Shown here in pieces: positions 7,982-54,386 of a stretch of 57,078 nt of DNA. Where the stretch lies: the NCBI GenBank assembly GCA_964434585.1, contig CAYSVN010000001.1, positions 1 to 57,078 of the forward strand. Reading direction: 5' to 3'. The translations under genes and the position numbers were made by a program. The notes under the pieces are model-generated. The model did no database searches, had not been told where the DNA came from, and was given only the letters and a program-made list of their open reading frames with translations. Numbering within the stretch: the stretch's first letter is position 1; each line of letters begins with the position of its first letter. The stretch comes from an uncultured Candidatus Peribacteria bacterium (GTDB lineage Bacteria; Patescibacteriota; Gracilibacteria; Peribacterales; Peribacteraceae).

Positions 7982-7996
7982 AAAAACATTGTACCA

Positions 7997-16321: not shown

Positions 16322-18529
<2,208 letters not shown>

Positions 18530-26487: not shown

Positions 26488-27116
26488 TGAAAGTTGATAT
26501 GTATACAGCAACCGGCACAAAGAAAGGTTCTATGGACTTGCCTGCTGCTATGTTCGATGTAGAAATTAATGAAGGCCTAATGCACCAAGCATTAGTACGT
26601 CAACAATCAAACCGTCGCCAAGCAATTGCACACAGCAAAAGCCGTGGCGAAGTAAGTGGTTCGACTCGTAAGCTTTACAAGCAAAAAGGAACAGGTAACG
26701 CTCGTCGTGGTCAAATCCGCTCAAGTGTCGTTCGTGGTGGTCACAAAGCTTTTGGTCCACGCAATAACGCAAACTACATTAAAGACATGCCAAAGAAAAT
26801 GCGTCGTAATGCACTTAAAAGCTGCCTTAGTTACCAAGCAAAAGCTGGTAAAATTCTTGGCCTAGAAGGTTACACAGATACTATTTCTACAAAAGCATTC
26901 CACCAACTACTAGAAAAACTTCCAGTAGATATTGGTCGTCACATTTTATTTGTACTTCCAGAAGAACATAGAGCTCTTAAGCTTTCTGCTGCAAATGTTG
27001 AAAATGTAAAATCTGTACACGTACAATATTTAAATCCAGAAGATATTTTAAAAGCTCGTCACCTTATTTTTGTAGGAGACGCTGCTAAAAAATCTGCCGA
27101 CATCTTTGCATCATGA
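26487..27116 (+). CDS. rplD: 50S ribosomal protein L4
   Basis: QKGTGNARRGQIRSSVVRGGHKAFGP. Confidence 0.95.
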   Translation: MKVDMYTATGTKKGSMDLPAAMFDVEINEGLMHQALVRQQSNRRQAIAHSKSRGEVSGSTRKLYKQKGTGNARRGQIRSSVVRGGHKAFGPRNNANYIKDMPKKMRRNALKSCLSYQAKAGKILGLEGYTDTISTKAFHQLLEKLPVDIGRHILFVLPEEHRALKLSAANVENVKSVHVQYLNPEDILKARHLIFVGDAAKKSADIFAS

Positions 27117-27418
27117 TTACCAATAAACGTATTATCATCGGCCAAGTTACCACTGAAAAAAGTGAAGCCCTTAAAAAAAATACTAATCCAGTATTTACAT
27201 TAAAGGTTCACCCTAAAGCAACAAAAGTAGATGTAAAACGTGAACTTAAACAACGTTATGACCTAGAACCAACTTCTGTTCGCATGACTAAAATTGTTAA
27301 AAAAACTCGTGTTGCAGGCCGTGGAAAAGAAATTAACAAACGTAACGCTGGTAAAAAAGCCGTTATTACCCTAAATCCTGGTGAAAAATTAGATCTTACC
27401 GCTGTTAAAAAACGATGA
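27113..27418 (+). CDS. rplW: 50S ribosomal protein L23
   Basis: Position and VTTEKSEAL...FTLKVHPKATKVDVKRELK. Confidence 0.9.
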   Translation: MITNKRIIIGQVTTEKSEALKKNTNPVFTLKVHPKATKVDVKRELKQRYDLEPTSVRMTKIVKKTRVAGRGKEINKRNAGKKAVITLNPGEKLDLTAVKKR

Positions 27419-28257
27419 TTAAAACTTTAAAACCAACTACACCGGCTCGTCGACAAATGACTATTGCAGATTTCTCTAATCTGTCAAAAGTAAAACCTGA
27501 AAAGCGTCTTACAAAAGGTAAAAAACGTATTTCTGGACGTGGAAACAATGGTCGGCTAACTGTTCGTCACCGTGGTGGGGGACACAAGCGTCGCTACCGT
27601 ATGATTGATTTTAAGCGTACTGATAAAATGGGTGTACCAGGTAAAGTTGCCACTCTAGAATACGATCCAAACCGAACTTCTCGTATTGCACTTGTGCACT
27701 ATGCTGATGGTGATAAGCGTTATATTGTTGCTGCAAAAGGAATGAAAGTAGACGATACAGTTGTTTGTAGCGAACGTACAAAGGTAAAAATTGGTAATCG
27801 TATGCAGTTGGAATTCATTCCAATGGGTTACAAAATTTACAACCTAGAACTAAAACCAAATAAAGGTGGATGTATTGTGCGTAGCGCAGGTACTTCTGCA
27901 ACCCTCGTTGGTTTCGATGACCGTTATGCAATTGTGCAACTACCAAGTGGTGAAATGCGCCGTATTCTTAAAGAGTGTTACGCAACTGTTGGTACCGTTG
28001 GAAATGAGGACCACAGCCTTATCACCATTGGTAAAGCAGGTCGTATGCGCTGGATGGGACGTCGTCCTCAAGTTCTTGGTAAATCAATGAACGCTGTAGA
28101 CCACCCACATGGTGGTGGTGAAGGACACAGTCCAATTGGTATGAAAGCACCAAAAACAAAATGGGGTAAAAAAGCCCTTGGTGTTAAATCTCGTTCACTT
28201 AAAAAATATTCTGACCCCCTTATTATTCGTCGACGTACTAAAAAGCGTCGTAAGTAG
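27415..28257 (+). CDS. rplB: 50S ribosomal protein L2
   Basis: [32 protein letters not shown]. Confidence 0.97.
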
Positions 28258-28268
28258 TAACCTCTCTT

Positions 28269-28538
28269 ATGTCTAGATCTCTAAAAAAAGGCCCATTCGT
28301 AGACCCAAAGCTACTCAAAAAAGTCATGAAAATGATTGAAGCTGGTGATAAAAAAATCATCAAAACTTGGGCGCGTCGTAGTGATATTCCACCTGAATTT
28401 GTAGGATTCACCTTCGCAGTCCATAACGGTAGAGAATTTCTACCAGTCTACGTTACCGAGCAAATGGTGGGTCATAAACTTGGTGAATTCTCTTGGACTC
28501 ATAAATTTAAAGGCCACGGTGGTAAATTGGCCAAATAA
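28269..28538 (+). CDS. rpsS: 30S ribosomal protein S19
   Basis: [12 protein letters not shown]...FAVHNGREF. Confidence 0.97.
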
Positions 28539-28549
28539 CCTCTCTTATT

Positions 28550-28876
28550 ATGTTTGCATCTCTACGTTCTGTCCGCATCGCGCCTAAAAAAGCCAACCTC
28601 ATTGCTGAGATTGTGCGCGGTAAAACTGTGCGCGAAGCGCTTGCAGATTTAGAACTTGTTAATAAAAAAGGTGCTCGTATTCTACACGGCCTTATTAAGT
28701 CTGCTGCAGCGAATGCAACCAATAACGAAAAACAAAATGTCGATGATCTTTACATTAAAGAATTAATCGTTAATAAAGCACAAAATATGAGTCGCGGTAT
28801 TCCAATGGCTCGTGGACGTATGCGTCGTATTCGCAAATTTTTTAGTCACATTTCTGTACGCTTCGGCGTTAAATAA
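28550..28876 (+). CDS. rplV: 50S ribosomal protein L22
   Basis: VRIAPKKANLIAEIVRGKTVREAL. Confidence 0.93.
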   Translation: MFASLRSVRIAPKKANLIAEIVRGKTVREALADLELVNKKGARILHGLIKSAAANATNNEKQNVDDLYIKELIVNKAQNMSRGIPMARGRMRRIRKFFSHISVRFGVK

Positions 28877-28881
28877 ATCTT

Positions 28882-29544
28882 ATGGGTCAAAAAGTAAATC
28901 CTAACGGCTTCCGTATTGGAATCACCAACACCTGGTCGAGCTCTTGGTTCGCCTCTGGTAAAAAATTCCAACAATTCTTTTTACAAGATGTAAAAATTCG
29001 TCGTTATATCCGTGAGCGTTTACCAGATGCTGGTATCTCTAAAATTGCTATCGACCGTAGTAAAAATGTTTCTGTTACTATTCATAGTGCAAAGCCTGGT
29101 GTGATTATTGGTAAGCAAGGAGCTTCAATTGAACTCCTTAAAGGTGATCTTAATAAAAAATTCCCAGGTAACTTTGATGTTAATATTCAAGAAGTACGTA
29201 ACCCAGATGGTGATGCAGAAGTAATTGCAGAACTAATTCAAGGACAGCTGCAACGCCGTATGCCGTTTAGGCGTGCTGCTAAAATGGCTATTGAAAAAGC
29301 AATGCAATCTGGAGTAACTGGAATCAAAGTAACGATTGCTGGTCGTCTTAACGGAGCAGAAATTGCTCGTAGCGAACAGTTTAAAGATGGTAATATTCCA
29401 CTTCAAACTCTTCGTGCAGATGTAACCATGGCACGTCGTACTGCTCAAACTACTTATGGTAGCCTTGGTATTAAAGTTTGGATTTACAATGGTCTTGTCT
29501 TTAAGAAAATTCAACAAGTACAAAGTTCTTCTCTCCACTCTTAA
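28882..29544 (+). CDS. rpsC: 30S ribosomal protein S3
   Basis: [13 protein letters not shown]...[10 protein letters not shown] (KH domain). Confidence 0.97.
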
Positions 29545-29546
29545 TC

Positions 29547-29975
29547 ATGTTAGAACCTAAAAAAAGAAAATTTCGGAAAAACTTTAGACTACGAGGCGCC
29601 TTCAAGCGCAAGAAAGCAACTAAAGGACACACACTTGCCTTTGGTTCAATTGGTCTTAAAGCTATCTCAGGTGGAGAATTAACATCTCGTCAAATTGAAT
29701 CTGCTCGTCGCGCAATGACTCGTAGTGTAGCTCGTAGTGGTAAAATTTGGATTCGTCCTTTCCCACACATTCCTGTTACTAAGAAAGCTGCTGAAGTACC
29801 GATGGGATCTGGTAAAGGTGCTATTGAATACTACTGTGCTATTATTCGTCCAGGAACAATGTTATTTGAAATGGCTGGACTAGACCATCAATCTGCACGC
29901 GAAGCTCTTCGCCTTGCAAGTCACAAACTTCCTTTTAAAACTAAGATTATTGAACGTATTTCCCACACCGCTTAA
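29547..29975 (+). CDS. rplP: 50S ribosomal protein L16
   Basis: [13 protein letters not shown]...[14 protein letters not shown]. Confidence 0.95.
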
Positions 29976-29977
29976 TT

Positions 29978-30190
29978 ATGGCTAAACAATTAAAAGATTG
30001 GCGCGCAATGGACATAGCTTCATTAATAGAAGAAGTTACAAAACTTCGCGACCAACTAACAACTATTAAATTAAATATTGATCTTGGAAAAGAGAAAGAT
30101 ACCGCTAAACGAAAGCGTTTACGACGTCATCTCGCCCAAGTGAATACTATATTGAGTCATAAACAACAAGAACTGGCGCTTTCTGCTTGA
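29978..30190 (+). CDS. rpmC: 50S ribosomal protein L29
   Basis: Position and size; helical LIEEVTKLRDQL. Confidence 0.85.
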   Translation: MAKQLKDWRAMDIASLIEEVTKLRDQLTTIKLNIDLGKEKDTAKRKRLRRHLAQVNTILSHKQQELALSA

Positions 30191-30247
30191 TATCAGAACT
30201 AAGCTCCACTAAACTCTCCTCCCTTACTTCCTTTTTATTTCCTTATT

Positions 30248-30493
30248 ATGCGCACCAAGCGCGGAATTATTACATCGGCAAAAATGCAAGATACCGTTAC
30301 GGTAACTGTAGATACATCTAAATTGCATAAGCTTTATAAAAAACGTTATAAGCAAAGTAAAAACTTTCTAGCCGACAGTAAAGGGTTCGAAGGTCTTAAA
30401 GAAGGAGATGAAGTAGAAATTACAGAATGTAAACCACTTTCAAAAAGAAAACGATTCAAAGTAACAGAGCTTATTACCGTAGCTAACTCATGA
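30248..30493 (+). CDS. rpsQ: 30S ribosomal protein S17
   Basis: [16 protein letters not shown]...[18 protein letters not shown]. Confidence 0.93.
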
Positions 30494-30858
30494 TCCAATC
30501 TCAAACCATCCTTAATGTGGCAGATAATACAGGCGCGAAAAGCGTAATGTGTATCGTTGTACTTGGCGGCTCAAAACGTCGTTATGCTCGAGTTGGTGAT
30601 ATTATCACTGTAGCTGTTAAGTCAGCTGCTCCTCGTGGTAATGTTAAGCGTAAGTCAGTAGAAAAAGCAGTAGTAGTTCGTACAAAAACTGCCACTAAGC
30701 GTACTGACGGTAGTGCTATTCGTTTTGATGACAACGCATGCGTGCTAATTGACGCCTCTGGTCAACCAAAAGGCACTCGTGTTTTTGGACCAGTAGCTCG
30801 TGAATTACGTGGACGTGGTTACCAAAAAATTATTTCTCTTGCCCCTGATGTATTATGA
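30490..30858 (+). CDS. rplN: 50S ribosomal protein L14
   Basis: [17 protein letters not shown]. Confidence 0.97.
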
Positions 30859-31406
30859 AGATAAGAGCAGGCGATAGCGTCGTAGTTACCACTGGCAAAG
30901 ACAAAGGAAAGACAGGACAAATTTTAAAAGTATTACCTTTAAAAGACCGTGTAGTTGTAGCTGGTATTAATATGCGTAAGCGTCATATGCCTAAGCGTGC
31001 AAACCAAGCAGGTCAAATCATTACCTACGAAGCAAGCATTCATAGTAGTAATGTTATGATCATTGATCCTAAAACAAAAAAACCTTCACGTATTGGTACA
31101 AAAATTGATGACAAAGGTCGTCGTCAACGTATTGCGAAAAAGAGTGGAACAGTTCTTACAAACTCTAAGCCAAAAGCTGCAACAACAGAGGTAAAAAATG
31201 CAGATAGTGAAAGTAAAGAAAAGAAAGGAGCAGCAAAAGCAAAGACAACAACAGCAGCTAAAAAAACAACAACAAAAAAAACTGCACCAAAATCTAAAGA
31301 AAAAACTACCGCTGAGACATCTGCAAGTAAACCAGATGCAAAACCATTCTGGAAACGCATTGGTGGCTTTGGAAGCAGCGAAACTGACGAAGATTCCTCT
31401 GAATAA
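30855..31406 (+). CDS. rplX: 50S ribosomal protein L24 with a ~80-aa K/T/A-rich C-terminal extension
   Basis: [25 protein letters not shown] (KOW) followed by a low-complexity tail. Confidence 0.92.
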
Positions 31407-31408
31407 TC

Positions 31409-32113
31409 ATGCCAACTATTACCCCTCTACGCGATCGGCTTTCCACTGACATCTTAGCAGAGCTAAAGAAAAGTCTTGGTGAACGTAATATCAACGCCTA
31501 TCCAAAGGTAGAGAAGATTGTTATTGCTACAGGTATTAACAAAACAAAACAAGACAGCAAAGAACTCTACGATTATATCGTAGATTCAATTGAAAAAATT
31601 ACTGGACAACGTCCAGTACTTACAAAAGCAAAAAAAGCTGTTTCAAACTTTAAAACTCGCGAAGGAAACGTAGTGGGAGCAATGGTAACCCTACGTGGAG
31701 ATCGCATGATTGATTTTCTTGATCGCTTCATTCAATACGTTTTACCACGTGTACGCGACTTCCGCGGACTAAAATCGAAGTTAGACGGTCAAGGTAATTA
31801 CTCTATTGGGCTTACAGATCACACTGTATTTCCAGAGTTACCACCAGCAAATGCTAAGCAAATATTTGGATTACAAATCCAGATTGTAACCACTACCAAT
31901 AGCGACGTAGAGGCAAAAGCATTACTAGATGCAATGAATATGCCTTTCCGTAAAAAGAAAGAAGAAGTAAAAACAGAAACAGCTAAACCAGAACCTAAAA
32001 AAGAAGTTGCAGAAACTGTAGAGACTAAAGAGATTGCTTCATCTGAAGAAACTCCTGAAACTCCTGAGGTAACTGAAACTCCTGAAACTGATAATTCCGA
32101 TACCCCTTCTTAA
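31409..32113 (+). CDS. rplE: 50S ribosomal protein L5 with an acidic E/T/P-rich C-terminal extension
   Basis: [15 protein letters not shown]; tail ...[24 protein letters not shown]. Confidence 0.93.
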
Positions 32114-32117
32114 TCCC

Positions 32118-32342
32118 ATGGCTCGCACAGCTCTTAAAGTAAAACAACGGCGTAAAAAAGCAGAATTTCTGCGCGCAAAACAAGCTGGTCGTACGCCAAA
32201 ATTTCCAACACGTGTTTACAATCGTTGTGAACTCTGTGGACGTCAACGTGGATTCATGCGTTTCTTTGGAATCTGCCGTATTTGCTTCCGTGAATTAGCT
32301 AGTAATGGTGAAATTCCTGGTATTAAAAAATCTTCTTGGTAA
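32118..32342 (+). CDS. rpsN: 30S ribosomal protein S14, zinc-binding type
   Basis: [23 protein letters not shown]. Confidence 0.9.
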
Positions 32343-32346
32343 ACCT

Positions 32347-32736
32347 ATGACATATGTAACTGACCCTATCGGCGACTTTCTAACCCGCATGCGTAACGCG
32401 CAAGCAATTGGGAAAAAGACAGTCTCAGCTCCAAACTCTCGTTTAAAAATGCAACTTTGTGATGTTCTTAAGAAGCACGGTTGGATTACAGGTGCAGCTG
32501 TTATTGGTGATGCTCCAAAGCAATCTATCCAAGTAACATTCAACGCTGAACACCCAAAACTAGAACTAAAACGTGTTTCAAAACCTGGTCGTCGTACCTA
32601 CAGTGCTGCAAAAGAATTAAAATCAGTACTGAGTGGTTACGGATCATCTATTATTAGTACCAGCCAAGGCCTTATGACTGACGAAGAAGCCAGAAAAGCA
32701 AACCTTGGTGGTGAAATTCTTTGTACCATCGCTTAA
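32347..32736 (+). CDS. rpsH: 30S ribosomal protein S8 (start moved to ATG 32347)
   Basis: MTYVTDPIGDFLTRMRNA. Confidence 0.93.
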   Translation: MTYVTDPIGDFLTRMRNAQAIGKKTVSAPNSRLKMQLCDVLKKHGWITGAAVIGDAPKQSIQVTFNAEHPKLELKRVSKPGRRTYSAAKELKSVLSGYGSSIISTSQGLMTDEEARKANLGGEILCTIA

Positions 32737-32738
32737 TT

Positions 32739-33284
32739 ATGTCTCGAATTGGAAAAAAACCAGTGGCTATCCCAAACGGTGTAACTGTAGAAGTTACCGG
32801 CAATCATATTGTTGTAAAAGGACCAAAAGGGGAATTAAGTTATAAGCATTTACCACAAGTAAGTGTAGCTGTAGCCGATGGCGAGGTTGTTATTACCCGT
32901 AACGAAGAAACCCAAGAAGGTCGTGCATTTCACGGTCTTACCCGTCAACTTGTAGAAAACATGACGATTGGTGTTTCAAAAGGATATGAAAAGAAACTAG
33001 AAATTATTGGTGTTGGTTACAAGGCACAAGCTAAGGGTACATCTGCCACTCTTAATCTTGGTCATAGTCACCCAATTGAATACAAAGCACCAGAAGGTGT
33101 AGATATCTCTCAGGATGAGAAGAATAAACAAATTCTTGTTATCTCTGGTATCGATAAACAAAAAGTTGGACAAACCGCTGCGGAAATTCGTAGCTTTCGT
33201 CCACCAGAACCTTACAAGGGTAAGGGTGTTAAATATATTGACGAAGTTATTCGTCGTAAAGCTGGTAAAACAGCCGCTAAATAA
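32739..33284 (+). CDS. rplF: 50S ribosomal protein L6 (start moved to ATG 32739)
   Basis: MSRIGKKPVAIPNGVTV. Confidence 0.95.
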   Translation: MSRIGKKPVAIPNGVTVEVTGNHIVVKGPKGELSYKHLPQVSVAVADGEVVITRNEETQEGRAFHGLTRQLVENMTIGVSKGYEKKLEIIGVGYKAQAKGTSATLNLGHSHPIEYKAPEGVDISQDEKNKQILVISGIDKQKVGQTAAEIRSFRPPEPYKGKGVKYIDEVIRRKAGKTAAK

Positions 33285-33296
33285 TCTTAAACTATT

Positions 33297-33641
33297 ATGC
33301 AAACTTCTAAAGTCATTAATCGGCAAGCTAGAAAGCGACGTGTTGCAGCAACCGTTCGCGGTACTGCAGAATGTCCTCGTCTAAGTGTGTTTCGTTCATT
33401 AAAAAGAATCGATGCACAGCTAATCGACGACGTATCTGGTAAAACAGTAGCATCAGCTTCTACACATAACTTAAAAGCAAAACCAAACATGGATGGCGCT
33501 AAGAAAGTAGGTGATGCCATTGCGAAAGCCGGTAAAGATGCTAAAGTATCCACCGTTGTGTTTGACCGTAATGGTTACCGTTACCATGGTCGTGTAAAAG
33601 AGCTTGCAGAAGCAGCACGTGCCGGTGGTCTAAAATTTTAA
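33297..33641 (+). CDS. rplR: 50S ribosomal protein L18
   Basis: RLSVFRSLKRIDAQLIDD...FDRNGYRYHGRVKELAEAARAGGLKF. Confidence 0.95.
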   Translation: MQTSKVINRQARKRRVAATVRGTAECPRLSVFRSLKRIDAQLIDDVSGKTVASASTHNLKAKPNMDGAKKVGDAIAKAGKDAKVSTVVFDRNGYRYHGRVKELAEAARAGGLKF

Positions 33642-33662
33642 CCTGCCTGCCGGCAGGCAGGT
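33641..33662. repeat. Perfect 22-nt GC-rich palindrome between rplR and rpsE
   Basis: ACCTGCCTGCCGGCAGGCAGGT; a second, imperfect copy lies at 345-366. Confidence 0.85.
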
Positions 33663-33689
33663 TCAACCTCATTTACTAATATTTCTTCT

Positions 33690-34280
33690 ATGTCTAAAAC
33701 TTCTCGTCCAGATCGAAAACAACGTGGTCGCCGCGGTGATCGTCGTAAAGCACCAAAAGAGTTCGAAGAGACTACTATCTCAGTAGATCGTGTAACTCGT
33801 GTGGTAAAAGGTGGACGTCGTATGCGTTTCCGCGCTGTAGTTGTAGTAGGAAATAAAAAAGGTAAGGTTGGTATTGGTACTGGTAAAAGTAACGAAGTAA
33901 TGGGCGCTGTTCAAAAAGCAGTTGAACGTGCTAAAAAAAGTATGATTACTGTTCCAATTATTGATGGATCTATTCCGCACGCTATTGATATTAAATACAA
34001 AGCAGCAAAATTACGTTTCTTGCCTGCACGTGAAGGTACTGGTGTTATTGCTGGTGGTTCGCCTCGTATTATTCTAGAGCACGCTGGTTACAAAAATGTT
34101 CTTAGTAAGCGCTTCGGTACAAACAATAAACTTGTTAATGCACAAGCAGTTATGAAAGCTTTACAAATGCTTCGTGTTCGTCCACAAGATGAAAAAGAAG
34201 TAGTAGAAAGCACTCCAGAAGGAATTGATGTAAAAGTAATGAAAGAAGAAGATGCTGCAACATTAACAGTAGAAGCATAA
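33690..34280 (+). CDS. rpsE: 30S ribosomal protein S5 with N- and C-terminal extensions
   Basis: VDRVTRVVKGGRRMRFRAVVVVGNKKGKVGIGTGKSNEV. Confidence 0.95.
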   Translation: MSKTSRPDRKQRGRRGDRRKAPKEFEETTISVDRVTRVVKGGRRMRFRAVVVVGNKKGKVGIGTGKSNEVMGAVQKAVERAKKSMITVPIIDGSIPHAIDIKYKAAKLRFLPAREGTGVIAGGSPRIILEHAGYKNVLSKRFGTNNKLVNAQAVMKALQMLRVRPQDEKEVVESTPEGIDVKVMKEEDAATLTVEA

Positions 34281-34301
34281 ATTAAAATTACATATTAGGT
34301 T

Positions 34302-34326
34302 AAGAGGCTTCGGCCTCTTTTTTTTA
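34302..34326 (+). terminator. Rho-independent terminator closing the r-protein operon
   Basis: AAGAGGC-TTCG-GCCTCTT followed by a T-run. Confidence 0.8.
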
Positions 34327-34341
34327 TTTGATAGTATTTTC

Positions 34342-34495
34342 TCTCTACTTTTTTGTAACCAAAAAAGTAACAAAAAAGTTTCGCGCTAGACGTTCGGTCG
34401 TAAGTAACTTATTGCAAGTCATTCACTGTCCTTCTTCGGCGGACGGTCGTTCATTCCTTTGCAAGTTACTAGTACGCCCTCTCGGGAGCGCGAGA
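34342..34495 (+). repeat. Copy C of the structured dispersed element
   Basis: TCTCTACTTTTTTGTAACC...AAAAAAGTTTCGCGCT...GTAACTTATTGCAAG...CTTCGGCGGA...TTTGCAAGTTAC...GAGCGCGAGAG. Confidence 0.75.
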
Positions 34496-34533
34496 GATAC
34501 ACATTAAAGAGGAAAGAATCAAGGATTTTCTAT

Positions 34534-34848
34534 TTATTCTTCACTATTGTCAGTGTCCATTTGATTGTTAAGCCATATTTCAAATGCTACAATCTTTACT
34601 ATGTCATAAAAATATTCATCATCTACATCGCTCACATTGTTAAATAGTGCATGCCCACTCTCTCTAACCTTTTGTTTTATTCTGTTTAAAAAAGGCTGTT
34701 TAAGATGTTCTATTTGAGGTTTAACGCTATCAAAATCAAACTCACCTGATGACATCTCTTTACCTATAGCTTCTTCTATTAAGCTTGCCAGCGCTCCGTC
34801 AAAACTATTACCGCCTTTAGGGCTATTGTTATTAGTTGAATCACTCAT
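34534..34848 (-). CDS. Hypothetical acidic protein
   Basis: ORF only. Confidence 0.4.
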   Translation of the reverse strand: MSDSTNNNSPKGGNSFDGALASLIEEAIGKEMSSGEFDFDSVKPQIEHLKQPFLNRIKQKVRESGHALFNNVSDVDDEYFYDIVKIVAFEIWLNNQMDTDNSEE

Positions 34849-34889
34849 ATAACATTATTATAATTAAAAATTATAATATGTCAATTTTT

Positions 34890-36311
34890 CTATAAAGTCT
34901 CTACTTCCTGTCCACCACTAGTATCCAATACATTATAGCCAAGTGCTGCCAAAGCATCGCGTAATTCGTCTGATTTGGCAAAATCTTTATCCTCCCTGGC
35001 CTGTTTACGCATATCTAGCAGTTCCAGTACCTTTTCTGGTAAATCGAGCTTCTGAGGGGCTTCAAAGCAGCCGAAGGTGTAATTTACCATTTGCATAAAA
35101 TGGTGCAGCGAAGCATGTTCATCATCAGTTAAGTCTTTATTACGGCTCCAGGCCATACATTCAAATACGGCTGCTAATGCTCCAGAGGTATTTAAGTCAT
35201 CATTCATGCAGTGTAAAAACTTGGTCATATGGCCGTTAAGGTCATCGCTAAATTGCACGGGCCAGGTACAATGCATACAAACATCAAACTGATGTTCTGC
35301 AAACCAATCGTTAATTTTTTTACGGGCTTTTTTAGCGTCTTCCATGCCTTTCCATTCAAATTTTAACTTTGTACGGTAATGTACACTCATCATTAGATAT
35401 CTAAAGTCGAGTGGGTTAAATCCTTTTTCTTTTATCATTGGGACATCAATAACATTTCCAAGGGACTTACTCATTTTAATATCACCCAAGTCTATATGGC
35501 GTTTATGGAGCCAGTATTTACAGAACTGCTTACCGCTTACTCCTTCACTTTGGGCAATTTCACATTCATGGTGTGGAAAAATATTATCTTCGCCGCCGGT
35601 ATGGATATCAATTTGCTCGCCAAGATGTTTATGAGACATCGCACTGCATTCAATATGCCAACCAGGAAATCCTTCACCCCATGGGCTTGGCCACTTTAAA
35701 ATGTGGTGAGCATTAGTACCAACTAATTTTTTCCATAAAGCAAAATCAACAGGGGAATGCTTGCATTCGTTAATATCAACTCGCGCACCTGCTGTTAAGT
35801 TTTTTACCTTATTCCCACTTAACTGTCCGTAGCGTTCAAACTTAGCAACATCAAAATACACACCGTCATCAGTTTCATAGGCCAAACCTTTTTCTAGCAA
35901 TGCTTCAGTCATGGTAATCATTTCTGCTACATGTTCTGATGCCTTAGGCCGCTCATGCGAAGGTAGAATATTAAGCTCGGCTTCGTCCTCTAGGTACATT
36001 TCAGCATACTTGCTTGCAATTTCTAGCGGATCAATCTGTTCATGTTTTGCTTGTTTTTCTAGTTTGTCCTCACCGTCTTCTGCGTCTGCCACTAAATGTC
36101 CTACGTCGGTAATATTGGTTACTTGTAGCACATTATGCCCACTTACCTCTAGCCAGCGTCGTAGTAAATCAGCCATTAAATAGGCGCTAAAATTACCAAT
36201 GTGTGGTCTTCCATAAACTGTTGGTCCACAGGTATACATCAATACTTTGTCTTTATTAAGAGGTGTAAATTCCTCTAGCTGCCGACTATAAGTATTGTAA
36301 ATTTTTAACAT
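34890..36311 (-). CDS. cysS: Cysteine--tRNA ligase
   Basis: TCGPTVYGRPHIGN (HIGH), CPSPWGEGFPGWHIECS, KMSKSLGN. Confidence 0.96.
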   Translation of the reverse strand: MLKIYNTYSRQLEEFTPLNKDKVLMYTCGPTVYGRPHIGNFSAYLMADLLRRWLEVSGHNVLQVTNITDVGHLVADAEDGEDKLEKQAKHEQIDPLEIASKYAEMYLEDEAELNILPSHERPKASEHVAEMITMTEALLEKGLAYETDDGVYFDVAKFERYGQLSGNKVKNLTAGARVDINECKHSPVDFALWKKLVGTNAHHILKWPSPWGEGFPGWHIECSAMSHKHLGEQIDIHTGGEDNIFPHHECEIAQSEGVSGKQFCKYWLHKRHIDLGDIKMSKSLGNVIDVPMIKEKGFNPLDFRYLMMSVHYRTKLKFEWKGMEDAKKARKKINDWFAEHQFDVCMHCTWPVQFSDDLNGHMTKFLHCMNDDLNTSGALAAVFECMAWSRNKDLTDDEHASLHHFMQMVNYTFGCFEAPQKLDLPEKVLELLDMRKQAREDKDFAKSDELRDALAALGYNVLDTSGGQEVETL

Positions 36312-47187: not shown

Positions 47188-48672
47188 ATGGATGATCAAA
47201 ATTCACCATCGGAAAATAGCCTTGAAGGTAACCAAGACTTAAATAGACAGAGCGCTACTCTTCAAGATGGAAATGCAGCGGAGAATGTTTCGATAGACCT
47301 TACTCCATTAGCGCCACATTTAGAGCATATTCAACAAAGTCTTAAGGAGGTTATGGAAGGCGTTGGTTCAAGATTTAATGAGGTAAAAGAAGTTTGCAGC
47401 GGTATTCTTAATTATATTTCCAGTCGAGCAAAAGCGATTCTTACTGTAAAAGATAAGACTGGTGAAGAAGCTGTGGAAGTAAGAGAGCAGTTAGGTGAGT
47501 TGTTAACAGCAGATGCTATTAAAGCGGTAAATGCTAGCGTACGTGGCGCTTCTTGGGCTGTGGCAAACAAGCCACATTTTCTAGAAATACTAAAACGGAA
47601 CAATGCAAAATTATATGGAAAATATATGGCGTTGGGCGCTGGCGCATTTACATTTATTAACTGGCTTGTAACTCATAATGTAGACGAAAGGCTACAAAAA
47701 TTCGCACCAACATCATTGTTTCCAGCGATAGCATTAACCGTTGCCCCTTTTTATGTTAAAAAGTTTCGAGGGATGGACAAGTACCATGAAGAAAAAGAAA
47801 AATTTGCAACCATGATTACAAATATAGAAATGGATGTTCGTAATTTATCATTGGATGATAAAATACAACCAGAGGATGCTTATAAAATAATTCGAACCCT
47901 TGGCTTATTAGCATCATTTATTCATAACTACGAAGATAGATCTGGAGCATGTATTACAAAATATATGGATAAAATAGGCGAATTAGATACGTATTTTGCA
48001 GAACAATCTAAGGAGGTACAACAAATTGCTTTAGATATTTTTAGTGAAAATAAATTAGAGACAAAAAAAGTAAAATCAAAAAATGGTGAACAGGAAGAGG
48101 TAAAAATGATCATTCCAGAAGTGACTGATTATCAACTTGGGCAAATGTGGCGTAAATTATTAGCAATTCTAGAGGACCAGTGTCAAGAAGTTGCTTTAAG
48201 AAAAAACGCAAAAGGTAGCCAAAATCCAAATTGGATACCCACATTTTCAGAAGAGAAAGTTAACGATGTTTCTGTAACAGGACTTACGGAAACATTGCAA
48301 ATTGCAGAATTAAGAGCTTCCTGTATGAAGATTGAGTCACGCGTAAGAAATGTTATTACAAAAGCAGAAGAATACGCAATTTATGGTAGCTGGGCAACGT
48401 TTGTCTCGTCGTTATATGCTGCTACACACCCAGATCCAACCATTCAATATGGCGCCATGGCGTTACTAGGAGTTGTATCCTCTTACATACTAGCAGTTAA
48501 AACGGACAATGGCCTTTCTGGACAAGGAAAAGACGCAACGTTTAGCTCTTCAAGTTATCAATTTGGTCATAAAATGTTAGATGTATTTAATAAATCTGTT
48601 ATAGAGGTAGAGATTCATGCTAGAGAATTAGTAAGTAAAAGGCCTCCTTCGAATATTGTTGTAGATATATAA
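47188..48672 (+). CDS. Hypothetical membrane protein (~4 hydrophobic segments)
   Basis: ORF with MALGAGAFTFINWLV, LFPAIALTVAPFYV, YGSWATFVSSLYAA and ALLGVVSSYILAV. Confidence 0.55.
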   Translation: MDDQNSPSENSLEGNQDLNRQSATLQDGNAAENVSIDLTPLAPHLEHIQQSLKEVMEGVGSRFNEVKEVCSGILNYISSRAKAILTVKDKTGEEAVEVREQLGELLTADAIKAVNASVRGASWAVANKPHFLEILKRNNAKLYGKYMALGAGAFTFINWLVTHNVDERLQKFAPTSLFPAIALTVAPFYVKKFRGMDKYHEEKEKFATMITNIEMDVRNLSLDDKIQPEDAYKIIRTLGLLASFIHNYEDRSGACITKYMDKIGELDTYFAEQSKEVQQIALDIFSENKLETKKVKSKNGEQEEVKMIIPEVTDYQLGQMWRKLLAILEDQCQEVALRKNAKGSQNPNWIPTFSEEKVNDVSVTGLTETLQIAELRASCMKIESRVRNVITKAEEYAIYGSWATFVSSLYAATHPDPTIQYGAMALLGVVSSYILAVKTDNGLSGQGKDATFSSSSYQFGHKMLDVFNKSVIEVEIHARELVSKRPPSNIVVDI

Positions 48673-48813: not shown

Positions 48814-48888
48814 GGGTCAGTAGCTCAGTGGTAGAGCAGTAGGCTTTTAACCTATTGGCCGTGAGTTCGATCCTCACCTGACCCACCA
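48814..48888 (+). tRNA. tRNA-Lys (anticodon TTT), CCA encoded
   Basis: Acceptor GGGTCAG/CTGACCC, D arm GCTC-AGTGGTA-GAGC, anticodon arm GTAGG-CTTTTAA-CCTAT, T arm GTGAG-TTCGATC-CTCAC. Confidence 0.92.
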
Positions 48889-48984
48889 CCTTTAAATACA
48901 AAAACAGTAACACTTCACATATCACAGTTTTATGCTCTGGATAATATTTAAAGATAGCTATGTATGGTATAATAGTTAGATTTT

Positions 48985-50628
48985 GTGAACAAATTCTCAG
49001 CTTTTCTATCGGCTTTCTTGCTTGTAGCCCTATTAGGTGTAGGTGGTACCGTATTTGCACAAAGTAACTGGGACGCCACCTTAAAAGCTAGTACCGAGGC
49101 GTTTACCATTATTGATGACGCGGATAGCTTAAGTGATATCTACCTACAATTTGGTGAAAACGTAGCAGAAACATTAACGTTTAATTTAGCTAATGACCGT
49201 TTTGAATTTAGTAATGATATATACATAAATGGTAATATTGCTGCTACCGGTAGTTTATTTATTAGTAATGATGGTGTATCAAACGATGCTACTATTATTT
49301 TTGATGAGCTAACTTCAACGAACTTAAGTTATAACTTTGGTAATAATCGTTTTGAATTTAGTAACGATGTATATATAAATGGCGGCCTAGAGGCAGCAGG
49401 ATCTATTACCGGTACAACACTTGCAACAACTACTCTACCAAACTGTGAGACGTTAGAAACCAATAGCGGCGGCCAATTAACCTGTGGTGCCGGTACAGTA
49501 ATTGCTCAAACTGGTTCCTCTTTGGCCACTATTCAAGTACGGCGCAGTAGCGGTAGTGTCTTTACGCTAACAAACCAAGACCAATGGTATCAATTTCCAT
49601 TTACTATTATAGATAGCGAAAGTAATACAGATGTTATTGAACATAATACTACAACCGCTAGCCGTATTGATATTAAAGAAGATGGTTATTATTTCCTTTC
49701 TTACCGTGTAGACCACAATGCTAACGTTAACCATGAACTATGGGCACGTGTCACGCAAAACGGAATAGAAATTCCAGGGTCTTACACCCAAGGAAGAAAC
49801 TTTGGAGGCGAGTTTTCCCCCAATGTTATTAGCGTGGTTTCTTACCTAGAAAATGGTGATTATGTAGAGCTAGAAGTACAACGTAAAACAGTGTTAAATA
49901 TCCAAAATGACACTATTTTAACGGTAACAAAACTTGAAGGCGTTCGTGGGCCAGAAGGCCCGGCGGGAACAGGTGGTTTAACGCAAGCAGAAACAGATGC
50001 GCTTTATGTAAATACCGCCGGAGATACCATGACAGGCGCATTAATAAATACCGTTTCGGTAACTTCTGAATTTATTAATGTGGCCTCAGCGACGCCACCT
50101 ACTTGTAATGTAGCCAATTTTGGTAGGCAGTGGGTCGATAGCGATACGGGTATGTTATACGTTTGCGACCCAAGCCGTACTAAGTGGCTGACACCGGCTG
50201 ACCAAAGCATTTGGGGAGAGCAAAATGGAGCCCAGTGTGTAGCAGGTGATTCTATTGGTAGCGAAGGCGACTGTGTTATTGAGTATGGAAGCTCGGTTGG
50301 GGTAAACCAAGATACAGAAGATAATGCTATCTATTTTCCGCATCCAATAACTATTACTGGTTATGGTTTCTCTAACGATGATAACGACTGTAATACTGGT
50401 ACATTTAGCATTGAAACATGGACAAGTGGCGGCACAGCTACTGATGAACCATTAATATTTGAGGCAGATATTGCAACAGGCATTGGGAATGTAGACACTA
50501 GTCAATCTTCCAATCTTTCTATTGATTTAAGAGGGCAGCAGTATAGAACATTTGGTATTGATAATGATTGCGGCCAAACAATTGATGATTATAATATGAT
50601 TATCTATTATCGCTACCGACATGATTAA
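48985..50628 (+). CDS. Secreted paralog P1: RFEFSNDVYING repeat module x2, C1q/TNF-like jelly-roll, tail-fibre-like GDTMTG motif, Cys-containing C-terminal domain
   Basis: GTG start; signal peptide ...GGTVFAQS; IQVRRSSG...IDIKEDGYYFLSYRV...LENGDYVELEV has C1q-like spacing; GPEGPAGTGG; LYVNTAGDTMTGAL. Confidence 0.7.
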   Translation: MNKFSAFLSAFLLVALLGVGGTVFAQSNWDATLKASTEAFTIIDDADSLSDIYLQFGENVAETLTFNLANDRFEFSNDIYINGNIAATGSLFISNDGVSNDATIIFDELTSTNLSYNFGNNRFEFSNDVYINGGLEAAGSITGTTLATTTLPNCETLETNSGGQLTCGAGTVIAQTGSSLATIQVRRSSGSVFTLTNQDQWYQFPFTIIDSESNTDVIEHNTTTASRIDIKEDGYYFLSYRVDHNANVNHELWARVTQNGIEIPGSYTQGRNFGGEFSPNVISVVSYLENGDYVELEVQRKTVLNIQNDTILTVTKLEGVRGPEGPAGTGGLTQAETDALYVNTAGDTMTGALINTVSVTSEFINVASATPPTCNVANFGRQWVDSDTGMLYVCDPSRTKWLTPADQSIWGEQNGAQCVAGDSIGSEGDCVIEYGSSVGVNQDTEDNAIYFPHPITITGYGFSNDDNDCNTGTFSIETWTSGGTATDEPLIFEADIATGIGNVDTSQSSNLSIDLRGQQYRTFGIDNDCGQTIDDYNMIIYYRYRHD

Positions 50629-50693
50629 AACACAATAAACATACAATGGAAACTAGTTAATATTGTTAAAAAATGGTACAATGGTTAGATCTT

Positions 50694-52310
50694 GTGAACA
50701 AATTCTCAGCTTTCCTATCGGCTTTTGTAATAGTAGAATTATGTAGTGTAGTGCATACCGTATTTGCACAAAGCAACTGGGACGCCACCTTAAAAGCTAG
50801 TACCGAGGCGTTTACTATTATTGATGATTCCGATACACTTAGCGATATTTACTTACAATTTGGTGAAAGCGTAGCAGAAACGTTAACATTCCACCGTACG
50901 AATGATTGGTTTGAATTTAGTAACGATGTTTATATACAAGGAGAGTTAACTACTTCCGGCGTAACAATCTTGCCATTACCAGACTGTGCAAACTTAGTTA
51001 CCAATGGCTCTGGTAGTATTATTTGTGGCAATACAACACAAATAACATTTACCGGTAGCGACTTAGCCGCTGTACAAGTACGTCGAGACACAAATTTAAA
51101 TTTGGCATTAGCTAGTACATGGCTTGATATCACCTTTAATAATACCGATATTGAAAGTAACGTTGCAGCGTTAGAGCACAATGACGTTAATACAGAGATT
51201 ATTGATATCAAACAAGATGGGTACTATATGATTTCGTACCATGTTACGTCGTCTGGAGGTTCTACAACTGGTGTCCAACAGCACGATCTATCAGTCCGAG
51301 TGCTAAAGAATAATGCAGATGTTTTAGAGGGATCTTTAACACGTTCTGCTGAATTTGTGCTGGAATATATTCCAAATACTATTAGTATTTTGGCATTCTT
51401 GCAAAAAGATGATGAAATTAAGCTGCAAGCGCTGCGTGAACTTAACTCACCAAATGAGATTATTGATGAAACAGTCTTTACAATTGTAAGCTTGGAAAGT
51501 GGTGGTTCTAGTGGTTCGTTGCTTCAAGTAGATGCTGATGATTTGTATGTTAATACCACTGGTGATACGATGACAGGAACATTAAATATTGCTAATGGTG
51601 GAGAATTAAATGTAGAAGGTAGTATTACGACCGATTCCAATTTGGGGTTAAATAGCGATGGGGCCGCTGTTGATGTCGGCATACGGTTTGGTGGTCCAGC
51701 AACACAATCACTTGTGTATGCAATAGGAAACACGCGGTTTGAATTTAGTGATGATGTGTATGTAAATGGTAACGCAGCAGTCACAGAAAATTTATTTATT
51801 AACGTTGATGATACTGCCGCAGATGCTAGTATTTCATTTGGGGGAACTACTCCACAAAGCCTATTATACTCTGATGGAAACACTCGGTTTGAATTAAGTG
51901 ATGATACCCAAATTGATGGAGAATTAGGTGTGACAGAAAATATCAACAGTCGCTGTGGAGCCCATGATAGCTTTAGTTTTGAACGTGGTGGTGTAAGCTC
52001 TAATAATTCCTGGGCAGTTGGTAATGGGCAAACACCTTGGGGTGCACCAATGGCTTGTAGCGGAGAAGTAACAGCAATGTCCGCGGTTTGTACGGGCTCA
52101 ATTGGAACCTCGCTCACTGCAGTGCTGCGTAAGAATAACGTTCCAACAACTTGTGTGGTTAATATTGCAGCGACAGTTGGTGATGCAACCTCGGTTGATT
52201 GCAATGAAACATTTGCTGTCGATGATGTATTAGGAATCTATGCTGGAACAGAAACAGGTGCTTGGACAGAATGTGTTGGTACATTTTGGACAAGGTATGA
52301 TATTCAATAG
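50694..52310 (+). CDS. Secreted paralog P2 (start moved to GTG 50694): repeat module, C1q/TNF-like domain, GDTMTG motif, two further repeat modules, Cys-rich C-terminus
   Basis: The 5' ~150 nt are nearly identical to P1. VQVRRDTN...IDIKQDGYYMISYHV; LYVNTTGDTMTGTL; NTRFEFSDDVYVNG and NTRFELSDDTQIDG. Confidence 0.7.
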   Translation: MNKFSAFLSAFVIVELCSVVHTVFAQSNWDATLKASTEAFTIIDDSDTLSDIYLQFGESVAETLTFHRTNDWFEFSNDVYIQGELTTSGVTILPLPDCANLVTNGSGSIICGNTTQITFTGSDLAAVQVRRDTNLNLALASTWLDITFNNTDIESNVAALEHNDVNTEIIDIKQDGYYMISYHVTSSGGSTTGVQQHDLSVRVLKNNADVLEGSLTRSAEFVLEYIPNTISILAFLQKDDEIKLQALRELNSPNEIIDETVFTIVSLESGGSSGSLLQVDADDLYVNTTGDTMTGTLNIANGGELNVEGSITTDSNLGLNSDGAAVDVGIRFGGPATQSLVYAIGNTRFEFSDDVYVNGNAAVTENLFINVDDTAADASISFGGTTPQSLLYSDGNTRFELSDDTQIDGELGVTENINSRCGAHDSFSFERGGVSSNNSWAVGNGQTPWGAPMACSGEVTAMSAVCTGSIGTSLTAVLRKNNVPTTCVVNIAATVGDATSVDCNETFAVDDVLGIYAGTETGAWTECVGTFWTRYDIQ

Positions 52311-52363
52311 ATAGATAAAAAATAGTAAAATTATAAAAAATATGGTATAATAATATAATAATC

Positions 52364-53152
52364 ATGAGAAAATCATTGTTATTATTGGCTGTTTTACTAA
52401 TACCATTAATTAGTGGTATGCATACTGTTGTTGCCAGTAGTTGGAACCCTACGTTAAAAGTAAGCACAGAGCCTTTTACAATTATAGATGATAGTGCTGG
52501 ATTACTAGAAGATATTTACTTACAATTTGGTGATACATTAGCAGAAACATTAATGTTTAACCGTGCTAACAATAGGTTTGAATTTAGTGATGATGTATAT
52601 GTAAATGGTGATATTGAAGCCGCTGGAGTTGTCACAGCATCACAGGCGACATTAACAGGATTGGTAAATTGTTCAAAGTTAAAAACAAACACTTTAGGGC
52701 AAGTCACTTGTAATACCGATCCTTCTATTTTGCATGTTGACACAAGTTCTATTGTAACAACTGGAGCAAACTGGATAACAGCATATTCTGTAGTTATTCC
52801 CGGTGGAACAATTGGTGTGGGCAATGCACTTGATATTGATGTATGGGCAGATAGAACGAGTGGTACCAGCTCAGCAGCATTTAGGGTGCTATATGGTGGA
52901 TCACAAATTGTCGCAATGGGAAATAACGGTAATGACCCAGCCCGTATCGATGTCATGATTAAAGGTGATGGAACTACAAGTGCGCAAAAAGGATTTATGG
53001 ACCACAGTAATTCGGGTAATGGTGGTACAAACCGTGGTAATGTTGCTATTGATTCTACGGTAGACCAAACATTACAAATACAAATTAACCCCAATGTTGA
53101 TACAAACAATTGGACATTTGAATATTTAAGTATTGAAGTTCTAGAGCCGTAA
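52364..53152 (+). CDS. Secreted paralog P3 (short): one repeat module plus a beta-rich C-terminal domain
   Basis: Signal peptide LLAVLLIPLISGMHTVVASS; shared SWNPTLKVSTEPFTIIDD...IYLQFGDTLAETLMFNRANNRFEFSDDVYVNGD. Confidence 0.65.
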   Translation: MRKSLLLLAVLLIPLISGMHTVVASSWNPTLKVSTEPFTIIDDSAGLLEDIYLQFGDTLAETLMFNRANNRFEFSDDVYVNGDIEAAGVVTASQATLTGLVNCSKLKTNTLGQVTCNTDPSILHVDTSSIVTTGANWITAYSVVIPGGTIGVGNALDIDVWADRTSGTSSAAFRVLYGGSQIVAMGNNGNDPARIDVMIKGDGTTSAQKGFMDHSNSGNGGTNRGNVAIDSTVDQTLQIQINPNVDTNNWTFEYLSIEVLEP

Positions 53153-53267: not shown

Positions 53268-54386
53268 ATGAAAATTATTCTAGCTCATGAACTTTTAACC
53301 ATGCGTGGCGGTGCAGAACGTGTTGTAAAAGCGCTGGCAGATAAATATAAAGACGCGCCAATTATTACATTACTCTATCATCAAAAAAAATTACAGAGCT
53401 GGTTTCCAGAATCACGAGTGAAAGTTTCGATGCTTCAATTATTTAGCTGGCTCACAACTAATCACCATGTTTACCTACCGTTATTTCCGCGTGCAGTAGA
53501 TTCTATTCGCGTGGACCAGCATGCAGATGTTCTATTAAGCTCGTCTTCTGCGTTTATGCACGGTCTTAAAACACCAAGTAATACAAAGCATATTTGTTAC
53601 GTTCATGCACCAGCCAGGTATCTTTGGGACAGAACACACGAAATGCTAGAGCGCGCAAATCAGGGCGTATTGGGTCCACTTAAATATTGGCTGGCATCAA
53701 TATTATTTCACCATTTACGCAAGTGGGATGTTGCAGTAGCAACTCGGCCAGATGTACTACTAGCTGCTTCTAAAGACGTGCAGCGTCGCATTAAATTATA
53801 TTGGGGCCGCGAAAGCCAGGTGGTTTATCCGTTTGTAGATAATTACTGGCTAGAGCAAGACGGCGTACTGCCAAGGCCAGTAGAGCACGAATACTACTTG
53901 GTAGTGTCGACGCTTGTGCGCTATAAGCAAATAGAATTAGCGGTAAGAGCGTTTAATGAGAACGGTAAAAAATTAATTATTGTAGGCGAAGGGCCCGATA
54001 AAAAACGCCTCCAGTATATGGCTTACAGCAATATTACGTTTGTAGGTTATAAAGAACGCGATGCATTATGTGCTTATTACCAACATGCGCGAGCAGTAAT
54101 ATTCCCAGGGGAGGAAGACTTTGGTATTGTGCCACTAGAAGCAATGTCGCAAGGAACACCACTTATTGCTTATGGCCGTGGTGGAGCGCTAGAGACTATA
54201 AAAAATAATACACATGGTGTGTTATTTAATGAGCCATATTATGCAGCAATAAACCAGGCAGCACAGCAGTTAGAAACCATGGAGTTCGATAAACCTACGC
54301 TAAAACAACAAGCTGCCAAGTTTAGTAAGCAGGTATTTTTTAAAACAATTGATAATGTTGTAACAACTGCAGTTTCGGTAGATTAA
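53268..54386 (+). CDS. Glycosyltransferase family 4 (GT-B fold)
   Basis: GEEDFGIVPLEAMSQGTPLIAYGRGGALETI (E-x7-E region). Confidence 0.85.
   Translation: MKIILAHELLTMRGGAERVVKALADKYKDAPIITLLYHQKKLQSWFPESRVKVSMLQLFSWLTTNHHVYLPLFPRAVDSIRVDQHADVLLSSSSAFMHGLKTPSNTKHICYVHAPARYLWDRTHEMLERANQGVLGPLKYWLASILFHHLRKWDVAVATRPDVLLAASKDVQRRIKLYWGRESQVVYPFVDNYWLEQDGVLPRPVEHEYYLVVSTLVRYKQIELAVRAFNENGKKLIIVGEGPDKKRLQYMAYSNITFVGYKERDALCAYYQHARAVIFPGEEDFGIVPLEAMSQGTPLIAYGRGGALETIKNNTHGVLFNEPYYAAINQAAQQLETMEFDKPTLKQQAAKFSKQVFFKTIDNVVTTAVSVD

Follow-up and report, generated by a model that had tools for sequence, protein, structure and literature searches.

Three paralogous, predicted secreted proteins encoded beside a tRNA-Lys gene share an N-terminal module and end in unrelated domains: candidate cell-surface adhesins

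What is the role of three adjacent genes whose products begin alike and end differently? The question is raised by contig CAYSVN010000001.1 (57,078 nt, analysed over its whole length and referred to as the window; all coordinates are on its forward strand), in which an earlier note had described P1, P2 and P3 as secreted paralogs that might form fibres for attachment to a host. These proteins are good candidates for cell-surface adhesins. The reading preferred here, to which we assign a probability of about 0.6, is that P1–P3 are Sec-exported, trimeric, modular fibre subunits on or near the cell surface, with distal domains that would recognise ligands. The three genes and their parts are as follows (aa, amino acids; pLDDT, predicted local distance difference test score).

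48985 to 50628, + strand: P1, 547 aa, GTG start; signal peptide, two N-modules, Cys linker, C1q-like head, short collagen-like stretch, YVN junction and tip P1C
48985 to 49059, + strand: P1 predicted signal peptide (aa 1–25), cleavage VFA↓QS, from the sequence by eye and the family leader analysis
49060 to 49404, + strand: P1 conserved mature N-terminus and two 50-aa modules (aa 26–140)
49435 to 49488, + strand: P1 Cys-bracketed linker LPNCETLETNSGGQLTCG (C154/C167)
49513 to 49938, + strand: P1 predicted C1q/TNF-like (BclA_C-related) jelly-roll head (aa 177–318)
49939 to 49983, + strand: P1 collagen-like stretch of five G-X-Y triplets, directly past the head
50002 to 50043, + strand: P1 junction motif LYVNTAGDTMTGAL
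50053 to 50628, + strand: P1C tip (aa 357–547) with six Cys, predicted β-sandwich, pLDDT ~85–94
50694 to 52310, + strand: P2, 538 aa from GTG; signal peptide, N-module, Cys linker, C1q-like head, YVN junction, two modules and tip P2C
51054 to 51497, + strand: P2 predicted C1q-like head (about aa 121–268), with a Pfam BclA_C match under the cut-off
51543 to 51584, + strand: P2 junction motif LYVNTTGDTMTGTL, where the mosaic gene of a related locus (L001, below) crosses over
51624 to 51938, + strand: P2 internal pair of 50-aa modules (aa 311–415), preceding the tip, where the Bdellovibrio protein Bd2439 has a β-helical stalk
51939 to 52310, + strand: P2C tip (aa 416–538) with six Cys, predicted jelly-roll/TNF-like β-sandwich
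52364 to 53152, + strand: P3, 262 aa, ATG start; signal peptide (aa 1–24), N-module, Cys linker and tip P3C (aa 118–262), without a C1q-like head

The list of open reading frames (ORFs) and pairwise alignments established that P1, P2 and P3 are paralogous. The alignment of P1 with P2 spans 363 positions at 39% identity (E 3e-64), and the part common to P1 and P3 is confined to the N-terminal 70 residues (E 3e-24), where the N-module is 67% identical; the shared N-terminus was therefore described correctly. In the window proteins, the mature N-terminus reads (Q)SNWDATLKASTEAFTIIDD. The core of the repeat module, [FL]E[FL]S[DN]D, is found at residues 73 and 123 of P1, 73, 349 and 399 of P2, and 72 of P3, which agrees with the two, three and one copies counted before. 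The six copies are seen in the DNA too. Tandem copies are spaced by 150 nt, and hence the period of the module is 50 aa rather than the ~45 aa first given. No other ORF in the window carries fibre modules. Scans of P1–P3 and their relatives found no model for the module in Pfam, NCBIfam or PHROGs; its designation as novel holds in the sense that neither Pfam nor NCBIfam models it, but not in the sense of rarity, as the module is widespread and not confined to the source genome. The Cys-bracketed linker reported for P1 and P2 (C154/C167 and C98/C111, respectively) is present in P3 as well (C103/C116).

Inspection by eye revealed in each of the three sequences a putative signal peptide, as previously proposed, in which a K-rich n-region with K/R residues precedes a hydrophobic core and a V-x-A site. 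Cleavage is predicted at VFA↓QS in P1 and P2 and at VVA↓SS in P3. The window also includes a signal peptidase I gene.

The central segment of P1 and P2 is, on the evidence of a structure model of P1 and of sequence matches, a C1q/TNF jelly-roll of the BclA_C kind. A monomer model of P1, built by AlphaFold2 on a 43-sequence alignment, had pLDDT >90 across residues 180–320. A Foldseek search of this model against the Protein Data Bank (PDB) gave 390 matches at E≤1e-3. The list ordered by E-value was topped by single-chain trimers of adiponectin and C1q heads, and the top matches further included Caprin-2 C1q, EDA-A1 and BAFF/APRIL. The P1 head superposed across ~140 columns on C1QL3, C1q, Cbln1 and BclA with template modelling (TM) scores of 0.77–0.83 and a root-mean-square deviation (rmsd) of 2.1–3.1 Å. 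Individual TM values were 0.80–0.83 for C1QL2/C1QL3, with the same rmsd range, 0.78–0.79 for Cbln1, and ~0.8 for BclA at 20–21% identity; ExsFA/BxpB was matched too. Phage knobs, namely the phi812 central spike and one of cyanophage A4, were also among the matches, and the best matches among predicted viral structures (BFVD) were collagen-repeat and tail-fibre proteins of uncultured phages and giant viruses.

Searches of solved structures by sequence pointed weakly in the same direction. Residues 215–298 of P1 matched C1QL2 with E 0.21, a 16-sequence profile of the head again gave C1QL2 first (E 0.15), and ExsFA was matched with E 0.33. The relatives gave a clearer signal. When 43 family members were scanned with Pfam, BclA_C was detected in 33 (E≤0.01, best 3.7e-17), C1q in six and TNF in one. 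The curated cut-off of BclA_C (PF18573) is 38 bits, which P0007 (67.9 bits) and P0019 (43.1 bits) exceed; nearer relatives reach 27–34 bits. In the alignment of the head, positions Q8, R10, D34, H44, Y60, Y64, H74, E100, D116 and R124 are invariant. The jelly-roll assignment made earlier from residue spacing is thus upheld for P1 and P2 by the model, the Foldseek matches and the Pfam matches of the relatives. P3 has no such domain, a point to be added to the heading of the earlier note, which names C1q/TNF-like domains for the cluster of three.

A fibre-like fold is predicted for the C-terminal half of P2. The AlphaFold2 model of residues 297–538 had a mean pLDDT of 78.6, with values mostly of 86–97 in the tip, and its best PDB match was 8onf (chain 8onf_B; E 1.5e-4, 261 columns), the C-terminal domains of Bdellovibrio Bd2439. 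In the Bd2439 construct a trimeric β-helix leads to a TNF-like tip, whose ligands are GlcNAc and Proteus O-antigen (PMC10769870). Given this architecture, the module pair of P2 is probably a β-helical stalk and P2C probably a TNF-like tip. The next matches were Ena3A, small jelly-roll capsids and C1q/Cbln/TNF-like heads, at TM 0.4–0.5. The comparison of monomer models by Foldseek found a jelly-roll likeness (C1q, TNF, BclA) and a more modest fibre likeness (Bd2439); that P2C itself appears to be a TNF-like jelly-roll had not been recognised before. The Foldseek list of P1 was dominated by the C1q-like head, not by P1C. In profile comparison by hhalign, neither the three tips P1C, P2C and P3C nor the head proved related to one another, in agreement with the view that the C-terminal domains are mutually unrelated.

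Between head and tip lie two short elements. The collagen-like stretch GVRGPEGPAGTGGLT of P1, already recognised in the earlier note, consists of five G-X-Y triplets, and no such stretch occurs in P2 or P3. In the family at large, runs of 3–13 triplets start no more than 12 aa after 71 of 85 complete heads, which lends indirect support to trimerisation. The motif YVNTxGDTMTG begins at residue 341 of P1 and 285 of P2. Its attribution to phage tail fibres was confirmed by a motif-rich relative, P0109, which matched tailspike and tail-fibre genes of Streptomyces, Bacillus and Synechococcus phages with E 8e-20 to 3e-5, and by phrog_4465 (‘tail fiber protein’), which aligned exactly to P1 residues 333–354, if weakly (E 0.33).

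A related locus, L001, showed how such proteins change. The genes in L001 follow the order tRNA-Lys, fibre genes, GT4, LDH and a gene that from its sequence we take to be uvrC, with the GT4 product 82% identical to that encoded in the window. The corresponding neighbours in the window, of which the GT4 gene at 53268 was identified by Pfam as foreseen, are:

48814 to 48888, + strand: tRNA-Lys (anticodon UUU), upstream neighbour, also kept in L001; 3' end not duplicated, no att-like site
53268 to 54386, + strand: GT4 glycosyltransferase (Pfam match), downstream neighbour also in L001, L002 and L003

L001 has two fibre genes only. One encodes a 540-aa protein that is 83–90% identical to P1 across residues 91–290 and, save for a 30-residue block at 67%, 80–100% identical to P2 across residues 301–540. 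P1-like sequence gives way to P2-like sequence at the YVNxxGDTMTG junction. This mosaic gene shows module exchange at the junction, with the conserved junction serving as a recombination joint. The mosaic could have arisen by a deletion through P1/P2 recombination in the lineage of L001, or the arrangement in the window by duplication and tip replacement in the source lineage.

The three proteins belong to a large family. An exhaustive profile search, covering 1.84 billion cluster representatives (50% identity), retrieved 1240 proteins with E≤1e-3, of which 565 have E≤1e-10 and 89 have E≤1e-30; in public sources they are named ‘hypothetical protein’. Mapping of the best 150 showed freely shuffled domains: the N-module usually comes first and has internal copies too, one to three heads stand in tandem, and the YVN motifs are sometimes very many. 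P2C forms the C-terminus of 19 proteins, P1C of 11 and P3C of one (P0006, where it caps a full-length fibre), and 94 family proteins have other C-terminal regions of at least 100 aa. P3C has two detectable relatives only. The most conserved element is the mature N-terminus right after the signal peptide. The pattern A↓SSW[NDS]PTLLVNTE[SA]F.[IVT]IDDGDG is found among the first 60 residues of 34 members, in 32 of them directly past a hydrophobic stretch. The proposed architecture of a conserved base and a variable tip is therefore a property of the whole family, as judged by domain mapping and C-terminus counts.

A degenerate DNA pattern of the leader gave 44 matches in metagenome contigs, among them one from Hainich groundwater and some of 212, 350 and 757 kb, and found no match in the 2.9 million viral contigs of IMG/VR. 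Two to four family genes, mostly adjacent and co-directional, are carried by 20 of the 44 loci. In L043, for instance, three tandem paralogs have differing tips. A protein-pattern scan of JGI metagenomes found no close relatives. Word-index homolog searches are nearly blind to the family (5 and 14 matches), and a P3-tip query missed even P3.

Two further contigs carry neighbouring genes of note. On the unrelated metagenome contig of L043, the three-paralog fibre cluster adjoins a gene (1272–2369, − strand) for a secreted protein that by eye seems to have SLH-type repeats. On a 706-kb metagenome contig (L007, 15111–24032, + strand), the gene for the 1645-aa family member P0166 precedes that for another giant surface-type protein, of 2973 aa, which has LVIVD repeats and faint Lactonase and BNR matches.

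On the preferred reading, P1–P3 would be exported by Sec, lose their signal peptides and assemble into trimeric fibres. The conserved mature N-terminus and the first module would form the cell-proximal base. In P1 and P2 a disulfide-bracketed linker would lead to a trimeric head of the C1q/TNF type, followed in P1 and most relatives by a short segment of collagen-like triple helix and then by the YVNxxGDTMTG junction shared with phage tail fibres. Past the junction would come either the tip at once (P1C) or a two-module β-helical stalk with a TNF-like tip (P2C), and P3 would be a shortened form in which a third tip (P3C) follows base and linker. Ligand binding would most likely be the task of the distal domains, with glycans on other cells or surfaces as the probable targets, and might in this way attach the bacterium to a host. 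Recombination at conserved junctions would reshuffle heads and tips.

Several results weigh against this reading. P1–P3 contain no lipobox, LPXTG motif or C-terminal transmembrane segment (the C-termini are ...YYRYRHD, ...WTRYDIQ and ...IEVLEP, respectively); with no cell-wall anchor, retention at the surface would depend wholly on the N-module. In the monomer models, the linkers and the first 50 mature residues had pLDDT <55. The head is below the Pfam threshold in P2 (residues 145–245, E 0.01, 16.1 bits) and gave no BclA_C match in P1. The match of P2 to Bd2439 is modest, with TM 0.38 and rmsd 11.7 Å, as expected for a monomer model of an elongated protein. Sequence comparison of P1C and P3C with solved structures gave no match of note. 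Finally, P3 and its L001 ortholog are 83–97% identical over the full length, the tip being at least as conserved as the base, and hence there is no visibly fast divergence of the tip at this distance; tips are instead exchanged as units.

Of the other explanations, the one that survives best is that P1–P3 form a surface nap or coat like that of BclA, dense and possibly glycosylated, with a structural or protective role (hydrophobicity, shielding from phages or predators) instead of specific adhesion. We consider this rather unlikely. It draws on the relation of the head to BclA_C, with BclA and ExsFA/BxpB among its best structural matches, on the high content of Thr and Ser in P1–P3 (19–20%), on the GT4 gene as a kept neighbour, and on an SLH-domain protein encoded in the window (below), which points to an organised wall or S-layer. 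BclA, however, has a long collagen-like stalk, to be compared with five triplets in P1 alone, and the head of P1 and P2 is internal, not terminal. The many alternative tips and their exchange are typical of recognition proteins. The link of the GT4 gene to the fibres is speculative, and in locus L004 the gene after the family member P0006 is not GT4 but one that, from its sequence, we take to encode a SecA homologue.

Less probable still is that P1–P3 are soluble lectin-like or matrix proteins, detached from the producer cell, that bind polysaccharide for nutrient capture or aggregation. Signal peptides without a recognisable anchor would suit such proteins, and TNF/C1q-like domains are often lectins (PMC10769870). 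Yet the strongest conservation in the family is at the mature N-terminus, which is hard to explain without docking to something conserved, for example the surface of the producing cell, and the elongated multi-module build resembles that of anchored fibres. An origin as tail-fibre genes of a prophage remnant or tailocin, suggested by the adjoining tRNA-Lys gene and by the YVNxxGDTMTG motif and fold matches to phage tail fibres, was rejected as highly improbable: all three proteins have putative signal peptides, the setting is a housekeeping one (CTP synthase and a 494-aa membrane protein upstream, GT4 and LDH downstream) with no phage genes nearby, the synteny of tRNA, fibre genes, GT4 and LDH is kept in the ~80% identical L001, the GC content of the cluster equals that of the flanks, the 3' end of tRNA-Lys is not duplicated and gives no sign of an integration site, tblastn against 50,697 phage genomes (INPHARED) found no match, and IMG/VR yielded no confirmed relative.

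Among known systems, the mosaic adhesive trimeric (MAT) fibres by which Bdellovibrio recognises prey are similar to P1–P3 as predicted here in being cellular exported fibres with several paralogs, an invariant N-terminal part and swappable C-terminal tips. The N-terminal domain of the MAT family is presumably cell-proximal and has no homologue in the PDB, and the tips have been swapped in evolution (PMC10769870). Bd2439 itself, the best PDB match of the C-terminal half of P2, combines a β-helical stalk with a TNF-like tip that contains a disulfide; Bd2734 has a TNF-like tip too. Both families resemble phage tail fibres. The MAT proteins differ in their size of ~1000 aa and in the S74 chaperone domain at the end of many of them, of which none was found in P1–P3, whereas P1 and P2 have the internal C1q/BclA_C-like head, followed in P1 by the short collagen-like stretch.

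BclA has the same head jelly-roll, an adjacent G-X-Y segment and an N-terminal segment that could dock a fibre. In BclA and C1q, however, the collagen stalk precedes a C-terminal head, whereas here the head is internal and G-X-Y comes after it. P1–P3 have in addition a predicted Sec signal peptide and a different N-module, with no exosporium context or leader seen. Phage tail fibres share the YVNxxGDTMTG-type junction and mosaic tip exchange and, as predicted for P1–P3, trimeric β-helical repeats and C1q-like knobs; unlike them, P1–P3 have putative signal peptides, and their surroundings contain no virion or baseplate genes. A few family members match the NCBIfam models of Scl1/Scl2 and Lcl through their G-X-Y runs, and these are extracellular trimeric adhesins, as is predicted for P1–P3. 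P1–P3 differ from them by the lack of LPXTG, very short collagen stretches and different globular domains, and gave no NCBIfam match at E <0.01, including to the Scl/Lcl and exosporium models. By analogy, then, P1–P3 would work like MAT fibres, BclA filaments and phage receptor-binding proteins. They are formal members of none of these groups, because of the sub-cut-off BclA_C match, the reversed order of head and collagen, the absence of S74 and of a virion context, and the unnamed N-module.

How ultra-small or surface-attached bacteria recognise partner cells is little understood. In cultivated Saccharibacteria, type IV pili and some proteins of the VCBS, dockerin or FN3 kind are the attachment factors identified to date (PMC10633639; PMC12206443), and none of the papers listed by a literature search on the subject mentions C1q or BclA. 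A family of >1000 clusters at 50% identity, with paralogs often in tandem, would provide testable candidates for recognition fibres. It would also add a further lineage to Bdellovibrio as an example of cells that employ phage-like fibres. Many proteins now listed as ‘hypothetical’ could be annotated by means of the N-terminal module and leader motif, for which Pfam and NCBIfam have no model. A wider proposal is tentative, and we would sooner bet against it than for it: that these proteins represent a large family, not yet named, of trimeric fibre adhesins that small-genome bacteria, possibly Patescibacteria or candidate phyla radiation (CPR) bacteria, export by Sec, with the N-terminal docking motif SSWxPTLLVNTExFxxIDDGDG (the family consensus) and exchangeable C1q-like heads, β-helical modules and tips, a cellular counterpart of phage receptor-binding proteins and MAT fibres. 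If this were true, the tandem paralog sets would decide to which partner or host cells a bacterium can attach.

Each of the three genes was found by consensus matching to have its own TGGTAYAAT box, as had been noted:

48965 to 48973, + strand: extended −10-like box TGGTATAAT, 11 nt ahead of the P1 start
50674 to 50682, + strand: extended −10-like box TGGTACAAT, 11 nt ahead of the P2 GTG
52343 to 52351, + strand: extended −10-like box TGGTATAAT, 12 nt ahead of the P3 ATG

The sequence occurs five times in the window, compared with 1.6 expected, and 2 of 100 shuffles reached five. More telling than the count is that three of the five copies lie 11–12 nt upstream of the starts of P1, P2 and P3. 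As this gap leaves no room for a Shine-Dalgarno sequence, the mRNAs of P1–P3 would be nearly leaderless. A fourth box is located at 7988–7996 (− strand), by the start of the minus-strand ORF 7232–7981, and the box-to-start distance in the four cases is 6–12 nt. This suggests that leaderless or near-leaderless mRNAs may be common in the source genome. The reading is one of consensus matching only. The TGGTAYAAT sites lack a −35 match and were not reported by a sigma-70 scan that required a −35 hexamer; the promoter and terminator scan found no intergenic terminators.

The start of P2 depends on the same box. In the mechanical ORF list and in the NCBI annotation (P0003, 545 aa) P2 begins at ATG 50673, which overlaps the box TGGTACAAT. 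The GTG at 50694 is favoured because of the homology of P1 and P2, which are 87% identical in DNA from the box through the signal peptide and are related in protein sequence as well.

Just upstream of tRNA-Lys, 47188–48672 (+ strand) encodes the 494-aa protein mentioned above, which has several hydrophobic segments and no significant Pfam match; fragments that resemble it by eye occur at the same place in L001 (19–600 and 670–915). The NAD-dependent DNA ligase LigA is encoded in two ORFs (16331–17353 and 17393–18529, + strand) separated by 39 nt, the first with the adenylation domain in two stretches and the second with the OB fold, zinc finger, HhH and BRCT domains. This could be due to a frameshift, a sequencing error or a genuinely split gene.

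A ribosomal-protein operon at 25891–34280 (+ strand), with L3, L2, S3 and S5 confirmed by Pfam, ends at S5. No L30, L15 or SecY gene follows S5; the small ORFs in 34281–34890 are without Pfam matches and are succeeded by a convergent CysRS gene. Lack of L30 is typical of CPR bacteria, and so the end of the operon at S5 fits a reduced, possibly CPR, genome, which is not proof of the taxon. Directly upstream of the operon, 21099–25712 (+ strand) is a 1537-aa ORF with neither a Pfam match nor fibre modules.

The SLH-domain protein of the window is encoded at 13454–14383 (+ strand) and has two SLH repeats and an RskA_C-like C-terminus. It could hint at an envelope with an S-layer or a secondary cell wall polymer, a possible docking surface for the fibres.

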